From Candidatus Babeliales bacterium (lineage in GTDB: Bacteria > Babelota > Babeliae > Babelales > JANWKD01), in NCBI GenBank assembly GCA_963701665.1, contig OY969622.1, positions 832,001 to 896,000 of the forward strand: a DNA stretch of 64,000 nucleotides, given 5' to 3'. This document shows positions 30,001 through 36,000 of this stretch, piece after piece; position 1 is the stretch's first letter; each line of letters opens with the position of its first letter. A program made the position numbers.

Positions 30001-33000
30001 AACGAACTGCTAACGCCTTTGCAAGAGTCGATTTACCACTTACTGATGGTCCATCAAACGTTATAATCATTATGCTCCTTGAGAATAAGCAATATCAACA
30101 CCCAACAGTTCAAGTGATACCATATCATTCCAATGATTTTCACTAACTTGTGCAGCTACTTTGAATGAGCGCTGTTCCCGCTCAAGCTGCATAAGTACCT
30201 CAAATAATTCAGGACGATTGAAAAAAATAAGTGGTTTAATGATACCGTGAGCAAATACTGAACATTTTACGTGCGCATCTTTTAACAATTGCGGTTTCTG
30301 CACGAGTGAAACATCGTCTAACAAAAATGTTGGTTGAGGGTTTTCACTGCCAAATGGCTGTAAATATTCGACATCTTTCATAAATTTGGTAGTCACGTCA
30401 GATAAATACAATCCTGCATCTATCGTTAATTTTTGTTTGAGATCTTCAGGCGTTAACAACGTTCTTATGCGTTGTTCGATATGGTGCTTAAGCGCGGGAA
30501 TATTATCAATGGGCAGTGAAAGTCCTGCTGCCACCGAGTGCCCACCAAATGTTGTTAATAAGTCGCGTGCATCATGTAAGGCATCAAACATATTGAAAGC
30601 AGAAATCGAGCGACATGAACCTTTTGCAATCCCATCACGCGTGATGTGTAACAAAATCGTCGGTTTTCCGTACGCACCAACAAGTCGTGATGCAACAAGC
30701 CCAATAACGCCCGGAGGCCATGAAGAACTCGCTGCAATAATACATAATTCATGATCAAGATCGATGCTCTTTTTTTCAATTTGCTCAACAACTTGTGTAA
30801 AAATAGAACGCTCAATATCTTTGCGCGCCTGATTGAGTTCGTAAAGCACTCGCCCTACTGAAGTTACTTCTTCAACATCAGTACCAATTAAAAATTTCAC
30901 ACCGTGTCGCGGATCTTCTAACCTACCTAATGCATTCAATTGCGGTGCCAACAAAAATCCAACATCCAACGATGATAACGTTGGTTTTTTGAAGTTGCCA
31001 TTCTGTTTGAGCACACGCAGTGAATTACTTTCTGTTCCATTCACATAGGTAAGGCCGTGACGCACCCAATATCTATTTTCGCCCGTAAGCGGCACAACAT
31101 CTGCCACCGTGCCCAATAAGAGTAGTTCATATGCTTTTGATGGCATTGGCAAACCAAGCTTTTCATATAACAACGTCATAAGCTTAAATCCAACGCCAAC
31201 ACCGGCAAATTTTTTATACGGATAAGGACAATCATGTTGATGAGGGTTAATAATGGCGTACGCATCAGGAACATGATCGTGCGGCCGATGGTGATCGGTA
31301 ATAATAAGATCTATTCCTAATTTTTTAGCGAGCGCAGCAGGCTCAAAAGCAGTAATGCCGTTATCAACGGTCATGATCACGCTATAGCCATTATCAAACG
31401 CGCGTTGCACAACTTTAGTCGAGAGTCCATAGCCATCATGCACGCGATGTGGCAGAAAAAAATTAACGCGCGCATCAAGTGGCGCTAAACAGATCATCAT
31501 TAATGCTGATGAGGTAATCCCATCAACATCATAATCTCCCGCGATTAATATTTTTTCTTTTTTGTGGATAGCCTCAATAATTCTTTCAACCGCGCGCGTT
31601 GCATCTTTAAGCATACTCGGATGTGCAACATGGTCCGGTGATGAAAATAAATAATTTTCAATCGCATCCGGCGTTGTATACCCTCGACCTACAAGGGTTG
31701 CAGCAACTGGTAATGAAAGATTATATTTTGCGGCAATCGTAAGGGCTTGTTGCTGATCAACGGAAGCGACACGCCATAGATATTTCGCACCTTGAATAGT
31801 GTTCATGTATTTGTTGTCTAATGTACGATGAGTAGTATTATATACTTTTTTAAGTGTACCGATGAACACAAAAAGTGCAATGAGCTCTGAGACGATTAAA
31901 ATTCAAATTCGATATCTTCTAGATTTGGCTTTTTGAATTCTTTTAATATAAAGTTCTCGATGAGCGGTTTATTTGCTTTTAAGTTAAATTCCGTAATACC
32001 GCTCAATTGTATAAAATCTTTTTCTGTGTACAAGAAATTAAAGGTAGCACAGCTTCCCAAATTTAAACAACGAGCAACATCAAAGGTGGTTAAATCATAC
32101 TCTTCAATTAATTTTTTCAATGCAGCATTCTTTTGTGCTTGCGTCAACAGGCGGTCATCTTTTAAGAAGTTAAGATAAATAATGCGAGGCGCTCGACTAT
32201 TTTTAGGATCTTTAAATATATGAATCGTCGCATTTGATTGGTCATCAACCCGAACATATTTATAATCGTAAAACCGGCGTGCGTCATCAAAAAGTTTTCT
32301 CAGATCGGTCGTTGTATCGGCATTACTGGAAGCATCAAGTATAAACATAACATCAACCTTACGCTCCGGTAACAAGAGCGAACGACCCGGAATATTATAA
32401 TCAATACCGCCATCAACTAAGGTTATGAATTCACGTTTTTTTAACCATTCAGGAACTTCACTCATTCCCTTAAATGGATTGTTAACCTGTGCAGGAGAAG
32501 CACGCAACGCACCAAAAGAAGTACCCCCCATTACACTTACCAATTCTGCTGATGCGAGATATTTAATTTTTTCAAAAGCGCTTTGTCGCTTTTCTTGCTC
32601 AGCGATCTCTTTAAAGAATATGGTATTTATATCTTTCAAATTCACCGCATATGCTGAACCAAAAATTCCCATCAAAAAGCCTAAACTTTGTTCAGGCGCT
32701 ACTTCTTTTGCCACACCGTCTTCAAAAATGCTATTAAATGAGTATGCGGGAATAGCCAGATTTAACTCTAGATTACGCACATCAACAGGATTAAACTCAT
32801 ACCAATTATAAAGATATTGGTTATTTTCTTGTTTATGCATAGACACTGCCGTATAGATAGGAAACGGTTTTGATCCATCTTGAATCATAGACCATTGTGC
32901 AGATAAGTGTTGCTTTTGTCTTTGATCACCAAAATCTGCCAATAATGTTCTTGCTAATAAAGAACCATAAAGATCTATTGAACCAATCGGCTGATCAAAA

Positions 33001-36000
33001 AGGAACTTTGGCCACATAATATCATTAACCAATAACTTTATATCTGATTGTATGACTGCTCCTATATTTTTAAGATCGAGTTTATTGGCACGTAACTTGC
33101 CTAATAAGTTTTCTTTATAGTCTGCTACGGACAATTGCAATAACGTCCAAGGAACTAAAAACCAGGTCGAACCGGAAAGTGTTGCAGCATACATTGTTGC
33201 ATCTAATAACCCTGTATCAGACATCCCTTTAAAAAAACCAAGCGATGCAATCATTGCACGGTAGCCACCACCGCTACACGCAACACCTATAGTGATCGGT
33301 TTCTCTAATTGATTGTTAAAGAATTGCGCAAGTCCTCTTTTGACAAATGGCATGCGACGTGATCGGTATACTTCTTCATTATAGGAGAGGTTCGTATCTT
33401 TTTTTGCTTGTGCTTTATAGGCAGCAAGTGGGTTGCGAGATTTAACTTGTTCTTTAAAACTAGGAATCGCGTACTTATTCCAAATACTAAGCAATCCATT
33501 TGCAACGTTAGCAACCGTTAATTCTTTAGTAATCAATGCCAATCGATTATCAACTGCTGTTTTTAAGCGCGTATAATCCTCTGGCGCCATAGCTTTCTGC
33601 GCCTCAGCTAAAATATTAATTTCTTCTTTTTTTAATTCTTCAACGAGTTCTTTGATTTTTTTAAGGGCCCCTGCGTCAGGATTTTTTGACATTAAAGCAG
33701 TTTGAGCTGCTATTTTGCGTTGGGTTTCAGAGAGTTTCAATTTGAATGTATTAAATTTCGCAGGATCTTTGAACGGCACGCCATTAAATTGTTGTATAAG
33801 ACTTTCTACGGCAAGATTAAGCATTAAGTTATTTTCATTAACACCTTGAGAAAGCCATTCCCATGGTGCTGCATATATCATGAAAACAACGGAACTGACC
33901 AGAAACCCTGATACGAGCACCTTCTTATTCATAGAAACCCTTCATTAAACTCTACCCTTGAACATCTAAGAATAATTATAATGATTTATATTTCAGATGG
34001 TCAATAAATTGATTATAAAATATAGAATTTCCTCTGCGCAGAAAAGAAATTATAAACCAAAATGTCATTGCGACCCTACTTCGCTAAGAGCTTCGAAGGG
34101 GTAGGCAACTTGTTCTACGAAGTTTTAACGAAGTAGAACCCAGATAATAAAATTAATTCCTTAAGGATTTATTAAAGTTCTGGTTCCCCGCGGCACTTCG
34201 TGCCTCGGGATGACAGTTGGGAAGCTTAATGCTCTTTTTTCTTGAGCGTAGGGAAAAGAATGACATCTTTAATGGATGTTGTGTTAGTAACGATCATAGC
34301 AAGACGATCAATACCAATACCAACGCCAACGGTAGGCGGCAGTCCATATTCGAGCGCTAAAATATAATCGGCATCATAGTGATGTGCTTCTGTATCGCCC
34401 GCTTTATGCGCTTTTACTTGCTCATGAAAACGTTCTGCTTGATCAAAAGGATCATTCAGCTCATTAAATCCATTAGCAAGTTCCATGCAGCCAATAAAAA
34501 GTTCAAAGCGCGCTGCGATATTCGGATTGTTAGAATCTCGCTTTGAAAGTGGTGAAATTTCAATAGGATAGCCGATAATGAAGGTTGGTTGAATCAACTT
34601 TGGTTCAACAAAACGTTCAAATAAGGCAAAAATTTGTTGCGCTGCGCCTGCTTGTTTATTTTCAAGCGTAATATCATGCTTTTTCAACAATGAGGGAAGA
34701 TTTTTTTCTTGCAGGTCTTGTTCAGAAAAACCGCCAACTTCTATAACTGCTTGCTTGATAGTCATTTTTTTGAATGATTTTGCAAAATCAAGAACATGAT
34801 CACCGAAAGGAACCTGCAAATTCCCCGCGCTTTCACGCACAATGGTACGCAGTAGCTCTTCAACAAAAACCATGATGTATTCATAGTCTTTATTTGCCGT
34901 ATAAAACTCGAGCATCGTAAATTCTGGGTTATGGCGCGTTGAAATGCCCTCGTTTCTGAAGTTTCGGTTAATTTCATACACGCGTTCAATACCGCCAACA
35001 ACTAAACGTTTTAGGTACAATTCTGGCGCAATACGCATATATAAATCTTGGTGCAAGGCATTATGATGGGTAATAAATGGTTTTGCTGCTGCACCGCCTG
35101 GAATTGGATGCAACATCGGCGTTTCAACTTCAACATACCCGTGACCGTTAAGATATTCACGGATCGATTGTACTATTTTACTACGTTTAAGGAATTTTTC
35201 TTTACTTTCTGCATTGGTAATTAAATCTAAATACCGTTGCCGATATTTTATTTCTATATCAGTTAAGCCATGAAATTTTTCTGGCAAAGGATATAAACAT
35301 TTACTCAACAGTTCAAAATCATCAACGTGCAAAGAGATTTCGCCCATTTTGGTTCTAAAAGAATAGCCTTTGAACCAGACAATATCGCCGATATCAACAA
35401 AATGCTCGAGAAGATTGAATTTTTCATCACCAACAATGTCTTTTCTGATGTAAACTTGAACTCTACCACTTTCATCCTGTACATGGGCAAAAGCTGTTTT
35501 TCCATGCAAGCGGATGGTCATGAGGCGACCTGCAATCTCGTATTTTTTTTGCTGTGTTTCATCAAATTGTGCAACAACATCAGCACAACGAGCGGTTACT
35601 TCTTTTGCGGCAGGCCAAGGATTAATATCCTTTTTGCGTAATGCTATAACTTTTTCAATGCGGATTCGGTGCTCTTCAGAGTCATGGGCATCATCAACAA
35701 GATTCAGTAATTCTTCAACAGTGGCATTTTTATTCATATAACAGCTTCTTTAAAATTTTCTTTAGACGATCAGTAATAAGTATGGCGCTAGAATAGGTTT
35801 TTGACAAGAAAACTCAAGTATCCTGCACATGCTATTCTAGATCATCCTGAGGCATATCACCTCTACCATGATGGTAAACATTTACAAGAGTTCATGTAAT
35901 GTATTAGTTTAAAAACGTTATGGCATGATTCCTAGTCTTATACCAAAAAGAATCGATGAAAAACAGCAGCTTTTTTTTATATTTTTTATTTTTTATTCAG

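Follow-up and report, generated by a model that had tools for sequence, protein, structure and literature searches.

What would a bacterium of the phylum Dependentiae (Babelota) do with an exported phospholipase of eukaryotic type? The question is raised by one gene in the window, the 64,000-nucleotide stretch of DNA analysed here. A survey of the whole genome had read this gene and a second copy elsewhere as the entry point of a route by which host fatty acids are acquired. The balance of evidence tips towards an exported phospholipase A/B that would act on host membranes and might, as an added benefit, release fatty acids; a part for the protein in the parasite's fatty-acid supply is plausible.

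The PLA2_B gene and its neighbourhood

The gene lies on the minus strand in the conserved arrangement lysS-PLA2_B-recJ:

34226..35737, minus strand: lysS (lysyl-tRNA synthetase), upstream neighbour (Pfam tRNA-synt_2, E 2.4e-88)
33975..34004, minus strand: promoter-like TTGACC-18-TATAAT, 43 nt upstream of the PLA2_B start codon (11/12 consensus matches)
31896..33932, minus strand: predicted exported cPLA2-type (PLA2_B) acyl hydrolase, 678 aa; whole CDS with stop codon (ORF list, translation, Pfam PF01735, PDB match)
30070..31869, minus strand: recJ, downstream neighbour, starting 26 nt past the PLA2_B stop codon (Pfam DHH, DHHA1, RecJ_OB)

The promoter-like site is weak evidence, because such sites are no commoner in the region (seven) than in its shuffles (mean 9.8). 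A scan between the PLA2_B gene and recJ returned no terminator-like site. Across 66 related loci, the PLA2_B gene is adjoined by lysS in eight, by recJ in nine and by either one in 14; tandem PLA2_B copies occur in 14 of the 66, and in four of them the nearest neighbours include ankyrin-repeat genes (five ORFs). None of the 108 nearest-flank ORFs at these loci is a lipid gene. The housekeeping genes around the locus are lysS, recJ and cmk.

Domain architecture

The 678-aa product is a bacterial member of the cPLA2 family (group IV, PLA2_B) without a C2 domain, predicted to be a serine-aspartate acyl hydrolase. It matches PF01735 at E 8e-29 and 100.9 bits (cut-off 23), with residues 215-542 aligned to model positions 1-339 of 491. 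Its closest solved structure in the PDB is human cPLA2-alpha (1CJY; E 5.6e-26), to which phmmer aligns two blocks (query residues 210-433 and 499-664), and the BLASTP alignments of eukaryotic relatives begin at query residue 162-173. The protein can be divided as follows:

33867..33932, minus strand: Sec-type signal-like N-terminus, residues 1-22, MNKKVLVSGFLVSSVVFMIYAA (hydrophobicity heuristic)
33450..33866, minus strand: N-terminal extension, residues 23-161, clade-specific (no Pfam family; few homologues)
31941..33449, minus strand: catalytic domain, cPLA2-type, residues 162-664 (phmmer to 1CJY; BLASTP to fungal and vertebrate relatives)

Residues 23-161 matched no Pfam family, and a query with residues 24-200 gave four matches among 1.84 billion representatives, each being either a PLA2_B protein from the same clade or a fragment. 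The extension occupies the position of the C2 domain in most animal cPLA2s. A six-frame search of the genome found exactly two PLA2_B matches: this gene (1.0e-29) and a paralogue outside the window (3.5e-30; C1:323024-324004), which encodes 658 aa (L001:910-2886) and is 38% identical to the 678-aa protein. The two genes of 658 and 678 aa reported by the survey, at 2e-30 and 7e-30, are recovered with the same lengths and similar E-values.

Catalytic motifs and cysteines

Alignment to 1CJY places the catalytic motifs, and conserved columns mark a pair of cysteines:

33258..33272, minus strand: glycine-rich oxyanion loop G221-G222-G223-Y224-R225 (aligned to SGGGFRAM of 1CJY)
33168..33182, minus strand: nucleophile serine motif T251-L-S253-G-S255 (aligned to GLSGSTW of 1CJY)
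32406..32414, minus strand: catalytic aspartate motif D507-G-G (aligned to VDSGL of 1CJY)
32049..32069, minus strand: cysteine pair C622...C628, possible disulfide (conserved columns among 80 relatives)

The motifs had been described as intact, at GGGYR 221-225, TLSGS 251-255 and DGG 507-509; these positions, and those of the paralogue (201, 231-235 and 491), are exact. G221, G222, G223, R225, S253 and D507 are identical across all 80 aligned relatives, and R225 has the phosphate-binding arginine of cPLA2-alpha as its aligned counterpart. Two of the protein's three cysteines are C622 and C628, whose columns hold Cys in 62 and 69 of the 80 relatives, respectively; a disulfide between them is possible.

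Between the two aligned blocks the bacterial protein has 65 residues and cPLA2-alpha 138, which suggests that the cap or lid, with its regulatory loop, is shortened here. A differing cap region, together with a Pfam match that stops at model position 339, would suit a domain turned to non-lipolytic or non-catalytic use, for example as an acyltransferase on another substrate or as a binding protein. Such a change of use is very improbable, given that the catalytic and oxyanion residues are all invariant and that the C-terminal part gives an alignment of its own to cPLA2-alpha, TFNF motif included.

Distribution and ancestry

PLA2_B was found by six-frame search in 204 of 261 Dependentiae genomes. 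An earlier count from gene calls (181 of 260) had likewise made the family widespread, and its description as nearly private to the phylum among bacteria stands, in that it is close to phylum-specific. A genome may have anywhere from 0 to 5 matches, and the N-terminal extensions are highly variable; the 57 genomes without PLA2_B include single-contig ones. In an unrooted tree, which gives no direction of transfer and samples 13 named eukaryotes with the secreted fungal phospholipase B (Plb1) left out, the Dependentiae-type rows lie to one side of a branch (SH-aLRT 93), both paralogues of this genome sit inside one eight-row clade (support 100), and a fungal clade (support 97) adjoins the Dependentiae-type clade as the nearest named eukaryotic one. 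Synteny with lysS or recJ, together with the breadth of occurrence, indicates that PLA2_B is an old, vertically inherited family of the phylum, repeatedly duplicated.

Homologues have been listed before. Additional file 9 of the Babela genome paper gives one the annotation 'Phospholipase A2, patatin superfamily' and a best hit in Metazoa, and a 'Lysophospholipase_catalytic_domain' orthogroup is entered for six of seven TM6 genomes in Table S5 of Yeoh (2016). The survey's view that the family had not been pointed out, phospholipases being unmentioned in the Babela and Chromulinavorax papers, holds for the main texts and fails for these two supplementary lists.

Proposed export and host-directed role

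The first 22 residues comprise a basic n-region followed by a hydrophobic core, with a Kyte-Doolittle 12-residue mean of 2.38 from residue 5 and no other hydrophobic segment in the protein; cleavage near YA/AP is a guess. By our own hydrophobicity heuristic, used in place of SignalP, signal-like N-termini are present in both paralogues of this genome and in 94 of 120 PLA2_B relatives, and to that extent the earlier report of Sec signal peptides is borne out. Two secretin genes, of type II, are found in the genome. Secretins appear among the TM6 core genes in the account of Yeoh (2016), and effectors bearing signals are described alongside vesicles in that of Deeg (2019).

Export is proposed because of these signal-like N-termini, the conserved cysteine pair, the two secretins and the published vesicles and effectors. 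The signal peptide would carry the protein across the inner membrane, after which it may leave the cell in outer-membrane vesicles or through type II secretion. Its substrates would then be host glycerophospholipids or lysophospholipids, whose ester bonds it would hydrolyse with S253 as nucleophile and D507 as base, while the GGG loop and R225 would hold the oxyanion and the phosphate; these residues are assigned by alignment. Across the phylum the role of the enzyme is probably to attack or remodel host membranes, either those of vacuoles or organelles or in lysis at exit. That the target belongs to the host is suggested by the ankyrin-repeat neighbours and by one relative (P0050; 1 of 120) in which a signal peptide and the PLA2_B domain are fused to C-terminal ankyrin repeats.

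A Sec signal on its own leads only to the periplasm. The protein might be a periplasmic or membrane-associated housekeeping enzyme instead of a secreted effector, acting as a lysophospholipase or transacylase either on lipids imported from the host or on the cell's own membrane, which it would remodel or clear of toxic lysolipids. The Pfam name of the domain ('lysophospholipase catalytic domain'), the near-core status of the family, its conserved synteny with lysS, recJ and cmk and the lack of a terminator-like site before recJ would all suit such an enzyme. It is nevertheless quite unlikely, since variable copy number, tandem duplication and variable N-terminal extensions form a pattern of host interaction that is atypical of housekeeping genes, the family is missing from 57 genomes, some of them single-contig, and one relative carries the ankyrin fusion.

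Fatty-acid genes and the salvage route

Genome searches confirm the survey's finding that genes of fatty-acid synthesis are absent and a ligase-ACP-PlsX/PlsY/PlsC route is kept. No match in the genome was obtained for KAS (a lone 13.5-bit hit sits in a Zn-ADH/GFO oxidoreductase), the FabH C-domain, FabA/Z, adh_short_C2 (the SDR family of FabG/FabI) or the ACC carboxyltransferase, and ACP, a FabD-like gene, AcpS, one ANL ligase, PlsX, PlsY and PlsC are retained. FakB/DegV was not found in the genome, so that free fatty acid entering via the ligase is the sole recognisable input.

Against this background, both exported enzymes had been taken as the dedicated opening step in a piracy of fatty acids and the main input to the ligase, ACP, PlsX, PlsY and PlsC, with the family kept because fatty-acid synthesis was lost. 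In favour of this reading, the genome has no patatin or GDSL lipase, the top NCBIfam family of the ligase is long-chain-fatty-acid--CoA ligase (410.8 bits, under the 476-bit cut-off), FabA/Z occurs in 0 of 261 genomes of the phylum (versus 204 for PLA2_B), and use of host lipids is proposed in passages of Yeoh (2016) and Deeg (2019) that name no enzyme. Several observations count against it, however. Two further signal-bearing Lipase_3-like ORFs could release fatty acids, FadL was not found, and the nearest flanks of PLA2_B genes in the 66 loci are devoid of lipid genes. By its PDB matches the ligase is a generic ANL enzyme, whose substrate and acceptor are not deducible from sequence.

The phospholipase and the salvage route do not co-occur consistently across the phylum. 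In Pfam-level searches, by which divergent ligases or acyltransferases could be missed, of MAGs that are kin and not independent (completeness 85-97% in family f5), 12 of the 14 f5 genomes have PLA2_B, one has PlsC and none the ligase, whereas of the 19 genomes in families f6, f8 and f19, 18 have the ligase and two have PLA2_B. In each of the five f5 PLA2_B genes examined, the motifs are intact and the N-terminus is signal-like. Among lineages with a preserved fabD-fabG-acpP-fabF cluster, PLA2_B is present in 46 of 47 genomes. The family is somewhat commoner with the ligase (183/227 genomes) than without it (21/34), which fits a partial link with salvage.

What stands of the survey's reading is the intact catalytic machinery, the signal-like N-terminus, the lack of fatty-acid synthesis genes and the route kept; what does not is the tie between enzyme and route, which the mismatched families, the flanks and the other lipase-like ORFs speak against. 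A dedicated first step in piracy therefore seems unlikely, though it deserves serious consideration. Since f5 has the enzyme without the ligase and f6, f8 and f19 have the ligase but rarely the enzyme, PLA2_B appears independent of the salvage route. Under the preferred reading of host-membrane attack, freed fatty acids may, in genomes like this one, enter ACP-PlsX-PlsY-PlsC after activation by the single ANL ligase, and this gain would be an extra benefit, not the cause of the family's retention.

Comparison with known systems

PF01735 is common to the bacterial protein and the vertebrate group IV cPLA2s, including cPLA2-alpha (1CJY), cPLA2-delta (5IXC; E 9.1e-20) and cPLA2-gamma (28% identity over 264 residues with one such protein), and their GGGxR loop, GxSGS, DxG and C-terminal TFNF block align. 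Like the bacterial protein, cPLA2-gamma has no C2 domain; it also has lysophospholipase and transacylase activity. The vertebrate enzymes are cytosolic, whereas the bacterial protein has an N-terminal signal-like segment, a clade-specific 140-residue extension in place of the animal C2 domain and a conserved Cys pair near the C-terminus.

The nearest named eukaryotic clade consists of fungal PLA2_B proteins annotated as 'lysophospholipase' or 'acyl transferase/acyl hydrolase/lysophospholipase', from Mucoromycota, Glomeromycota, Lipomycetaceae and a chytrid. BLASTP aligned a Paraglomus protein at E 2e-36 and 26% identity, and the homologue search returned the fungal match P0115 at E 2e-36. Unlike the bacterial protein, the fungal ones (560-870 aa) have large insertions inside the domain.

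The patatin-like effectors ExoU, VipD and the rickettsial Pat proteins have a Ser-Asp dyad and a glycine-rich oxyanion loop and are delivered by bacteria to eukaryotic host membranes, a mode of action like that proposed here. They belong to PF01734, which the bacterial PLA2_B protein does not match and of which this genome has no member. Their delivery is by type III, type IV or other dedicated systems, in contrast to the Sec signal and type II secretins found here.

Chlamydia depends on host cPLA2 for its lysophospholipid supply and activates host fatty acids with an acyl-ACP synthetase, while keeping fatty-acid synthesis. There the cPLA2 belongs to the host; here the enzyme is encoded by the bacterium, and the genes of fatty-acid synthesis are missing. 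The concept shared by the two is that of an obligate intracellular bacterium, cPLA2-type deacylation of host lipids, an ANL ligase and ACP-dependent acyltransferases, with deacylation and salvage linked, in the present case, by proposal.

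Catalytic domain of the phospholipase-like proteins

In both the ORF list and the translation, the gene reads as 678 uninterrupted codons. The genome is a single contig of 1,337,192 bp (completeness 93.56), and searching it in six frames returned exactly two PLA2_B genes:

Window 31896..33932, minus strand: PLA2_B gene, 678-aa product
C1:322433-324409 (C1 is the contig of the window): paralogue, 658-aa product, 38% identical to the 678-aa protein

The 678-aa protein matches the Pfam family PLA2_B (PF01735, "lysophospholipase catalytic domain") over residues 215-542, reaching 100.9 bits where 23 is the cut-off (E 8e-29), and the paralogue scores 103.3 bits. 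Among solved structures, the top relatives of the 678-aa protein are human cPLA2-alpha (1CJY, E 5.6e-26) and cPLA2-delta (5IXC, E 9.1e-20). By profile it does not belong with the patatin-like phospholipases: PF01734 matched neither this protein (E up to 0.1) nor anything else in the genome. Neither paralogue is matched by any NCBIfam model, and a search of the ESM Atlas returned only eukaryotic PLA2_B and patatin-containing clusters. The gene's words are shared by seven DNA sequencing runs, with small shares in each, and no RNA run is listed.

The catalytic set is intact, with residue invariance judged on an alignment of 80 out of 120 relatives. The oxyanion loop SGGGYRAM lies opposite SGGGFRAM of 1CJY, and G221-G223 and R225 of its GGGxR motif are invariant (80/80). 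The nucleophile motif TLSGSTW, of the G-x-S-G-S type, aligns with GLSGSTW around a serine (S253) found in all 80 relatives, while LVDGGI, opposite VVDSGL, supplies the equally invariant D507 (80/80) in the D-x-G motif of a Ser-Asp dyad. The full invariant set comprises R193, G221, G222, G223, R225, S253, G254, G323, P358, P382 and D507. The survey's finding had reported two PLA2_B proteins of 658 and 678 aa and six motif positions within them; the six-frame search bears out the former, and translation with a coordinate check showed all six positions to be correct. A protein with these residues is probably an active enzyme, and a role other than lipolysis is very improbable.

The alignment with cPLA2-alpha falls into two blocks (residues 210-433 and 499-664), and the cap region is predicted to be shorter than in cPLA2-alpha because only 65 residues separate the blocks, versus 138 in the human enzyme. 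Alignments of the catalytic domain to eukaryotic relatives begin at residue 162-173. Two of the three cysteines in the protein, C622 and C628, are conserved in 62/80 and 69/80 relatives, respectively, and the putative bond between them would fit the disulfide of an exported protein.

Sec-type N-termini and predicted export

Residues 1-22 of the 678-aa protein consist of MNKK, a 16-residue hydrophobic core (VLVSGFLVSSVVFMIY) and A/A. They look like a Sec signal, in which a basic region and a hydrophobic core lead up to small residues at the presumed cleavage site. The N-terminus of the paralogue reads MKKSILFSCALVCFSMLCA. Sec-type N-termini are family-wide: by a heuristic that is not SignalP (a stretch of 12 residues that begins among the first 20 and averages 2.0 or more on the Kyte-Doolittle scale), a signal-like N-terminus was scored in 94 of 120 relatives, and several of the 26 that fail appear to be N-terminally truncated. 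A later hydrophobic segment occurs only in relative P0044 among the 120. The homologue in Babela carries a SignalP score (Pagnier 2015, Additional file 9). Behind the signal, the N-terminal extension (residues 23 to about 161) matches no Pfam family, and residues 24-200 alone, searched against 1.84 billion representatives, retrieved only four proteins, namely the query, two relatives from the same clade and a 243-aa fragment.

The protein may also pass beyond the periplasm. To our knowledge, type II secretion has no known substrate signal. The genome has two secretin genes, in agreement with the two gspD copies described as core to TM6 by Yeoh 2016. Retention of this signal-bearing protein for a housekeeping role in the periplasm is quite improbable. 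In one relative (P0050), the PLA2_B domain stands between a signal peptide and ankyrin repeats at the C-terminus.

One PLA2_B subfamily shares an N-terminal module directly after the signal peptide, with a consensus of roughly ITVHN.T....Y.A.YY and no Pfam match. It is carried by P0053, P0054, P0060, P0064, P0066, P0078, P0084, P0093 and others, and by the protein from locus L108, which lies in a large genome of another phylum. Two other signal-bearing ORFs of the window are neighbours of each other:

Window 35956..36804, plus strand: signal-bearing HAD-like hydrolase
Window 36821..37684, minus strand: 287-aa ORF with a signal-like N-terminus and a zinc-protease-like HEAVH (HExxH) motif, no Pfam match

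Lipid genes of the genome

Profile searches at E up to 1 or 0.1 found no genuine ketoacyl synthase (KAS) in the genome, the single weak match (13.5 bits) being a Zn-ADH/GFO oxidoreductase fusion, and no match to FabA/FabZ, the FabG/FabI SDR family, the FabH C-domain or the ACC carboxyltransferase. FakB/DegV, GDSL lipase and FadL were likewise without a match. The genome encodes PlsX, PlsY, PlsC, AcpS and one adenylate-forming (ANL) ligase of 526 aa; ACP and a FabD-like gene lie near PlsX. The best NCBIfam family of the ligase is long-chain-fatty-acid--CoA ligase NF004837 at 410.8 bits, below the 476-bit cut-off, and its PDB matches are generic ANL enzymes. Both parts of the survey's inventory, the missing enzymes of fatty-acid synthesis (condensing, reducing and dehydrating) and the retained ACP, AcpS, ligase, FabD-like protein, PlsX, PlsY and PlsC, thus hold: this is a genome without fatty-acid synthesis and with a possible salvage route.

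Two further ORFs match Lipase_3 weakly and are possible additional exported lipases or esterases:

C1:1108447-1109223 (locus L116:1342-2118, plus strand): Lipase_3-like ORF, 258 aa, signal-like N-terminus, GxSxG-type motif, 23.6 bits (cut-off 22)
C1:1020559-1021839 (locus L118:760-2040, plus strand): Lipase_3-like ORF, 426 aa, signal-like N-terminus, GxSxG-type motif, 15.8 bits

Since both bear signals, the PLA2_B proteins are not the only candidate lipases of the genome, which counts against a phospholipase dedicated to fatty-acid entry.

Two observations concern the locus L005, which holds the ACP region and gyrA:

L005:5694-6968 (C1:765694-766968), minus strand: FabD-like gene adjoining ACP
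L005:13149-15756 (C1:773149-775756), minus strand: gyrA as two overlapping ORFs in different frames (13149..14831 and 14779..15756)

In families f17 and f18 of the phylum (loci L119 and L120), the fabD and acpP pair is part of a fabD-fabG-acpP-fabF cluster, and the adjacent FabD-like and ACP genes here look like what is left of a fatty-acid synthesis operon that has decayed. The second frame of gyrA continues the expected GyrA sequence, so that the reading frame apparently shifts by one base near L005:14800, whether in the genome itself or through an assembly error.

Distribution and origin of the family

By six-frame search, PLA2_B occurs in 204 of 261 genomes of the phylum, all of one order, in 148 of the 189 high-quality genomes and in 110 of 145 genera; matches number about 400 overall, with up to five per genome. 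None of 14 control genomes has it. A scan of one genome per species (185,579 species), made with peptide patterns from 13 Dependentiae-type proteins and hence blind to divergent PLA2_B genes elsewhere, yielded 66 loci, all in records titled Dependentiae, Babeliales, TM6, "uncultured bacterium" or "uncultured Pseudomonadota". When 18 such genomes were searched again, at least 13 had matches whose contig coordinates coincided with those in members of the phylum set, so that the titles differ and not the placement. The scan and the controls are consistent with the survey's description of the family as almost private to this phylum.

Dependentiae-type PLA2_B genes were also found in two 7-8 Mb genomes of another phylum (L108, G300:C54; L109, G277:C26). 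In the phylum of one 7.9 Mb genome among the matches, 2 of 87 genomes have a strong PLA2_B match. Misbinning was ruled out by the GC content of the two loci (0.50 and 0.58 versus 0.34-0.38 in Dependentiae loci); the genes are therefore real residents of other bacteria, and their position inside the Dependentiae radiation in the tree suggests transfer out of the phylum.

The unrooted tree (61 rows, 636 columns; quick IQ-TREE, LG+C20 PMSF) comprised 41 of the 120 relatives, the paralogue, the two large-genome proteins and 17 of 50 matches to a fungal query, the last being 13 named eukaryotes and four unnamed metagenome proteins labelled "Euk" by origin only. A branch with an SH-aLRT of 93 (unstarred) divides the tree, with all Dependentiae-type rows, both large-genome rows and two of the unnamed proteins on the same side. 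The fungal clade (support 97, starred) adjoins this side, and vertebrate cPLA2-gamma lies further out. Both paralogues of the genome are placed within one 8-row clade (support 100). With its long branches, thin eukaryotic sampling and lack of a root, the tree supports a single old origin of the family only moderately.

Flanking genes agree with the tree and point in the same direction. Among the nearest flanks of the 66 loci (108 ORFs), LysS was found in eight loci, RecJ in nine and either in 14, and the lysS-PLA2_B-recJ order of the window is the arrangement seen in those 14. The family is thus old within the phylum, and it has expanded there, with two or three head-to-tail copies in 14 of the 66 loci. 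The nearest-flank ORFs include ankyrin-repeat proteins (five ORFs in four loci), C11 peptidases and nucleoside transporters, and none of the 108 is a lipid-metabolism gene.

Phospholipase and salvage route across the phylum

The survey's finding had read the two proteins as the entry point of a nutritional route, exported phospholipases whose products would flow through the ligase and ACP to PlsX, PlsY and PlsC. Were the family kept to feed that route, the two would be expected to co-occur, and they do not.

Genomes with a match per family of the phylum (Pfam-level searches; the genomes are related, not independent, and many are MAGs)
f5: PLA2_B 12/14; ligase 0/14; PlsC-type 1/14 (E 1e-7); KAS 0/14
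f6: PLA2_B 0/7; ligase 6/7; PlsC-type 3/7; KAS 0/7
f8: PLA2_B 0/4; ligase 4/4; PlsC-type 3/4; KAS 0/4
f19: PLA2_B 2/8; ligase 8/8; PlsC-type 8/8; KAS 0/8
f3: PLA2_B 7/16 (all weak, E 4e-9 to 1e-6); ligase 0/16; PlsC-type 5/16; KAS 1/16 (weak)
f21: PLA2_B 66/80; ligase 79/80; PlsC-type 76/80; KAS 0/80
f17: PLA2_B 32/35; ligase 35/35; PlsC-type 32/35; KAS 33/35
f18: PLA2_B 12/12; ligase 12/12; PlsC-type 11/12; KAS 12/12

Family f5 keeps the phospholipase without a ligase, and in all five f5 genes examined (602-1016 aa) the N-terminus is signal-like and the GGGxR, SGSTW and D motifs are intact; no Pfam family matches their long N-terminal parts. The reverse holds for f6, f8 and f19, which when pooled have the ligase in 18/19 genomes and PLA2_B in 2/19. 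Counted per genome, PLA2_B is present in 21 of 34 without the ligase and 183 of 227 with it. The family counts, together with the 0/108 lipid-metabolism genes among flanking ORFs, speak against functional coupling of phospholipase and route. What the survey had said of the domain, the catalytic set, the Sec-type N-termini and the missing fatty-acid synthesis stands; its "entry point" is not supported in that form, since PLA2_B and the route do not travel together. A dedicated fatty-acid entry point, although possible in a genome that holds both parts, is weakened as a mechanism by this phyletic pattern and appears unlikely.

A strong KAS match was obtained in 47 genomes, of which 46 also have PLA2_B, and in two that were looked at the KAS lies in a fabD-fabG-acpP-fabF cluster. 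KAS presence was dropped as a proxy for fatty-acid synthesis, and the lineages bearing it are not called competent for synthesis, because FabA/Z is missing from all 261 genomes of the phylum (0/261).

The f5 PLA2_B proteins at four loci (L111-L113 and L115) have N-terminal extensions of 380-520 residues without a Pfam match. The PlsC-type acyltransferase domain is also matched by ORFs of roughly 825-850 aa in f9, f17, f18, f19 and f20; these possibly join it to a second domain, as in fusions that re-acylate lysophospholipids, and the genome studied here has none.

Proposed role

A variable, duplicated, signal-bearing family that outlasts the salvage route is more readily explained as a phospholipase A/B directed at host membranes than as an enzyme dedicated to nutrition. 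We therefore favour, with modest confidence, a predicted exported phospholipase A/B that would act on host membranes, with the release of fatty acids as a side benefit. In this genome, membrane attack and a nutritional role could go together, with acyl chains taken from host lipids possibly reaching the ligase.

A broader scenario, which we put forward as speculative and rather doubtful, is that a Dependentiae ancestor took a eukaryotic cPLA2-type catalytic domain and added a Sec signal, and that the family then diversified across the phylum into an arsenal that breaks host membranes and also supplies acyl chains or lysolipids for the parasites' own membranes, made in the absence of fatty-acid synthesis. 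If so, the family would be the missing enzyme behind the host-lipid use proposed in the TM6 and Chromulinavorax papers, and lineages in which ligase and PlsC were lost would since have turned to the uptake of more complete lipids.

Relation to earlier work and known enzymes

Obligate parasites of protists, the Dependentiae are widespread and unable to make fatty acids. Host-lipid use was proposed, with no enzyme named, by Yeoh 2016 and Deeg 2019, the former describing the mechanisms of membrane-lipid acquisition as mostly unknown. The terms "lipase" and "PLA2" are absent from the main texts of Pagnier 2015, Yeoh 2016 and Deeg 2019, and we found no literature discussing the PLA2_B family in bacteria; the supplements of Deeg 2019, which lay outside the search, may list the gene. 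The survey's view that the family had not been pointed out is thus right for the main texts and too broad for the supplements. In Additional file 9 of Pagnier 2015, Babela_gene_172 (533 aa) has a metazoan best match at 1e-45 and bears the label "Phospholipase A2, patatin superfamily", which refers to the wider fold class, and Table S5 of Yeoh 2016 lists a "Lysophospholipase_catalytic_domain" orthogroup in 6/7 genomes. The existence of the gene and its eukaryotic affinity are therefore already on record; the searchable literature discusses neither how it spread and expanded through the phylum nor whether it is related to the lipid route.

The family is a rare case of a typically eukaryotic enzyme family fixed in a bacterial phylum. 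A near-universal, duplicated, signal-bearing cPLA2-type hydrolase is an assayable candidate for host-membrane attack and possibly lipid supply, and the occurrence of phospholipase without route and of route without phospholipase narrows what experiments must tell apart.

The canonical cPLA2 enzymes (alpha, beta, delta, epsilon and zeta) bear a C2 domain and are cytosolic, whereas the 678-aa protein has a signal-like N-terminus and no match to the C2 domain (PF00168), Pfam having returned only PLA2_B and a spurious Amidase match (E 0.088). For these two reasons it would not be classed as a canonical cPLA2, and its domain content appears closer to the C2-less gamma type. Judged by its sequence, the gene product is a bacterial, C2-less and predicted exported variant of a known enzyme family.
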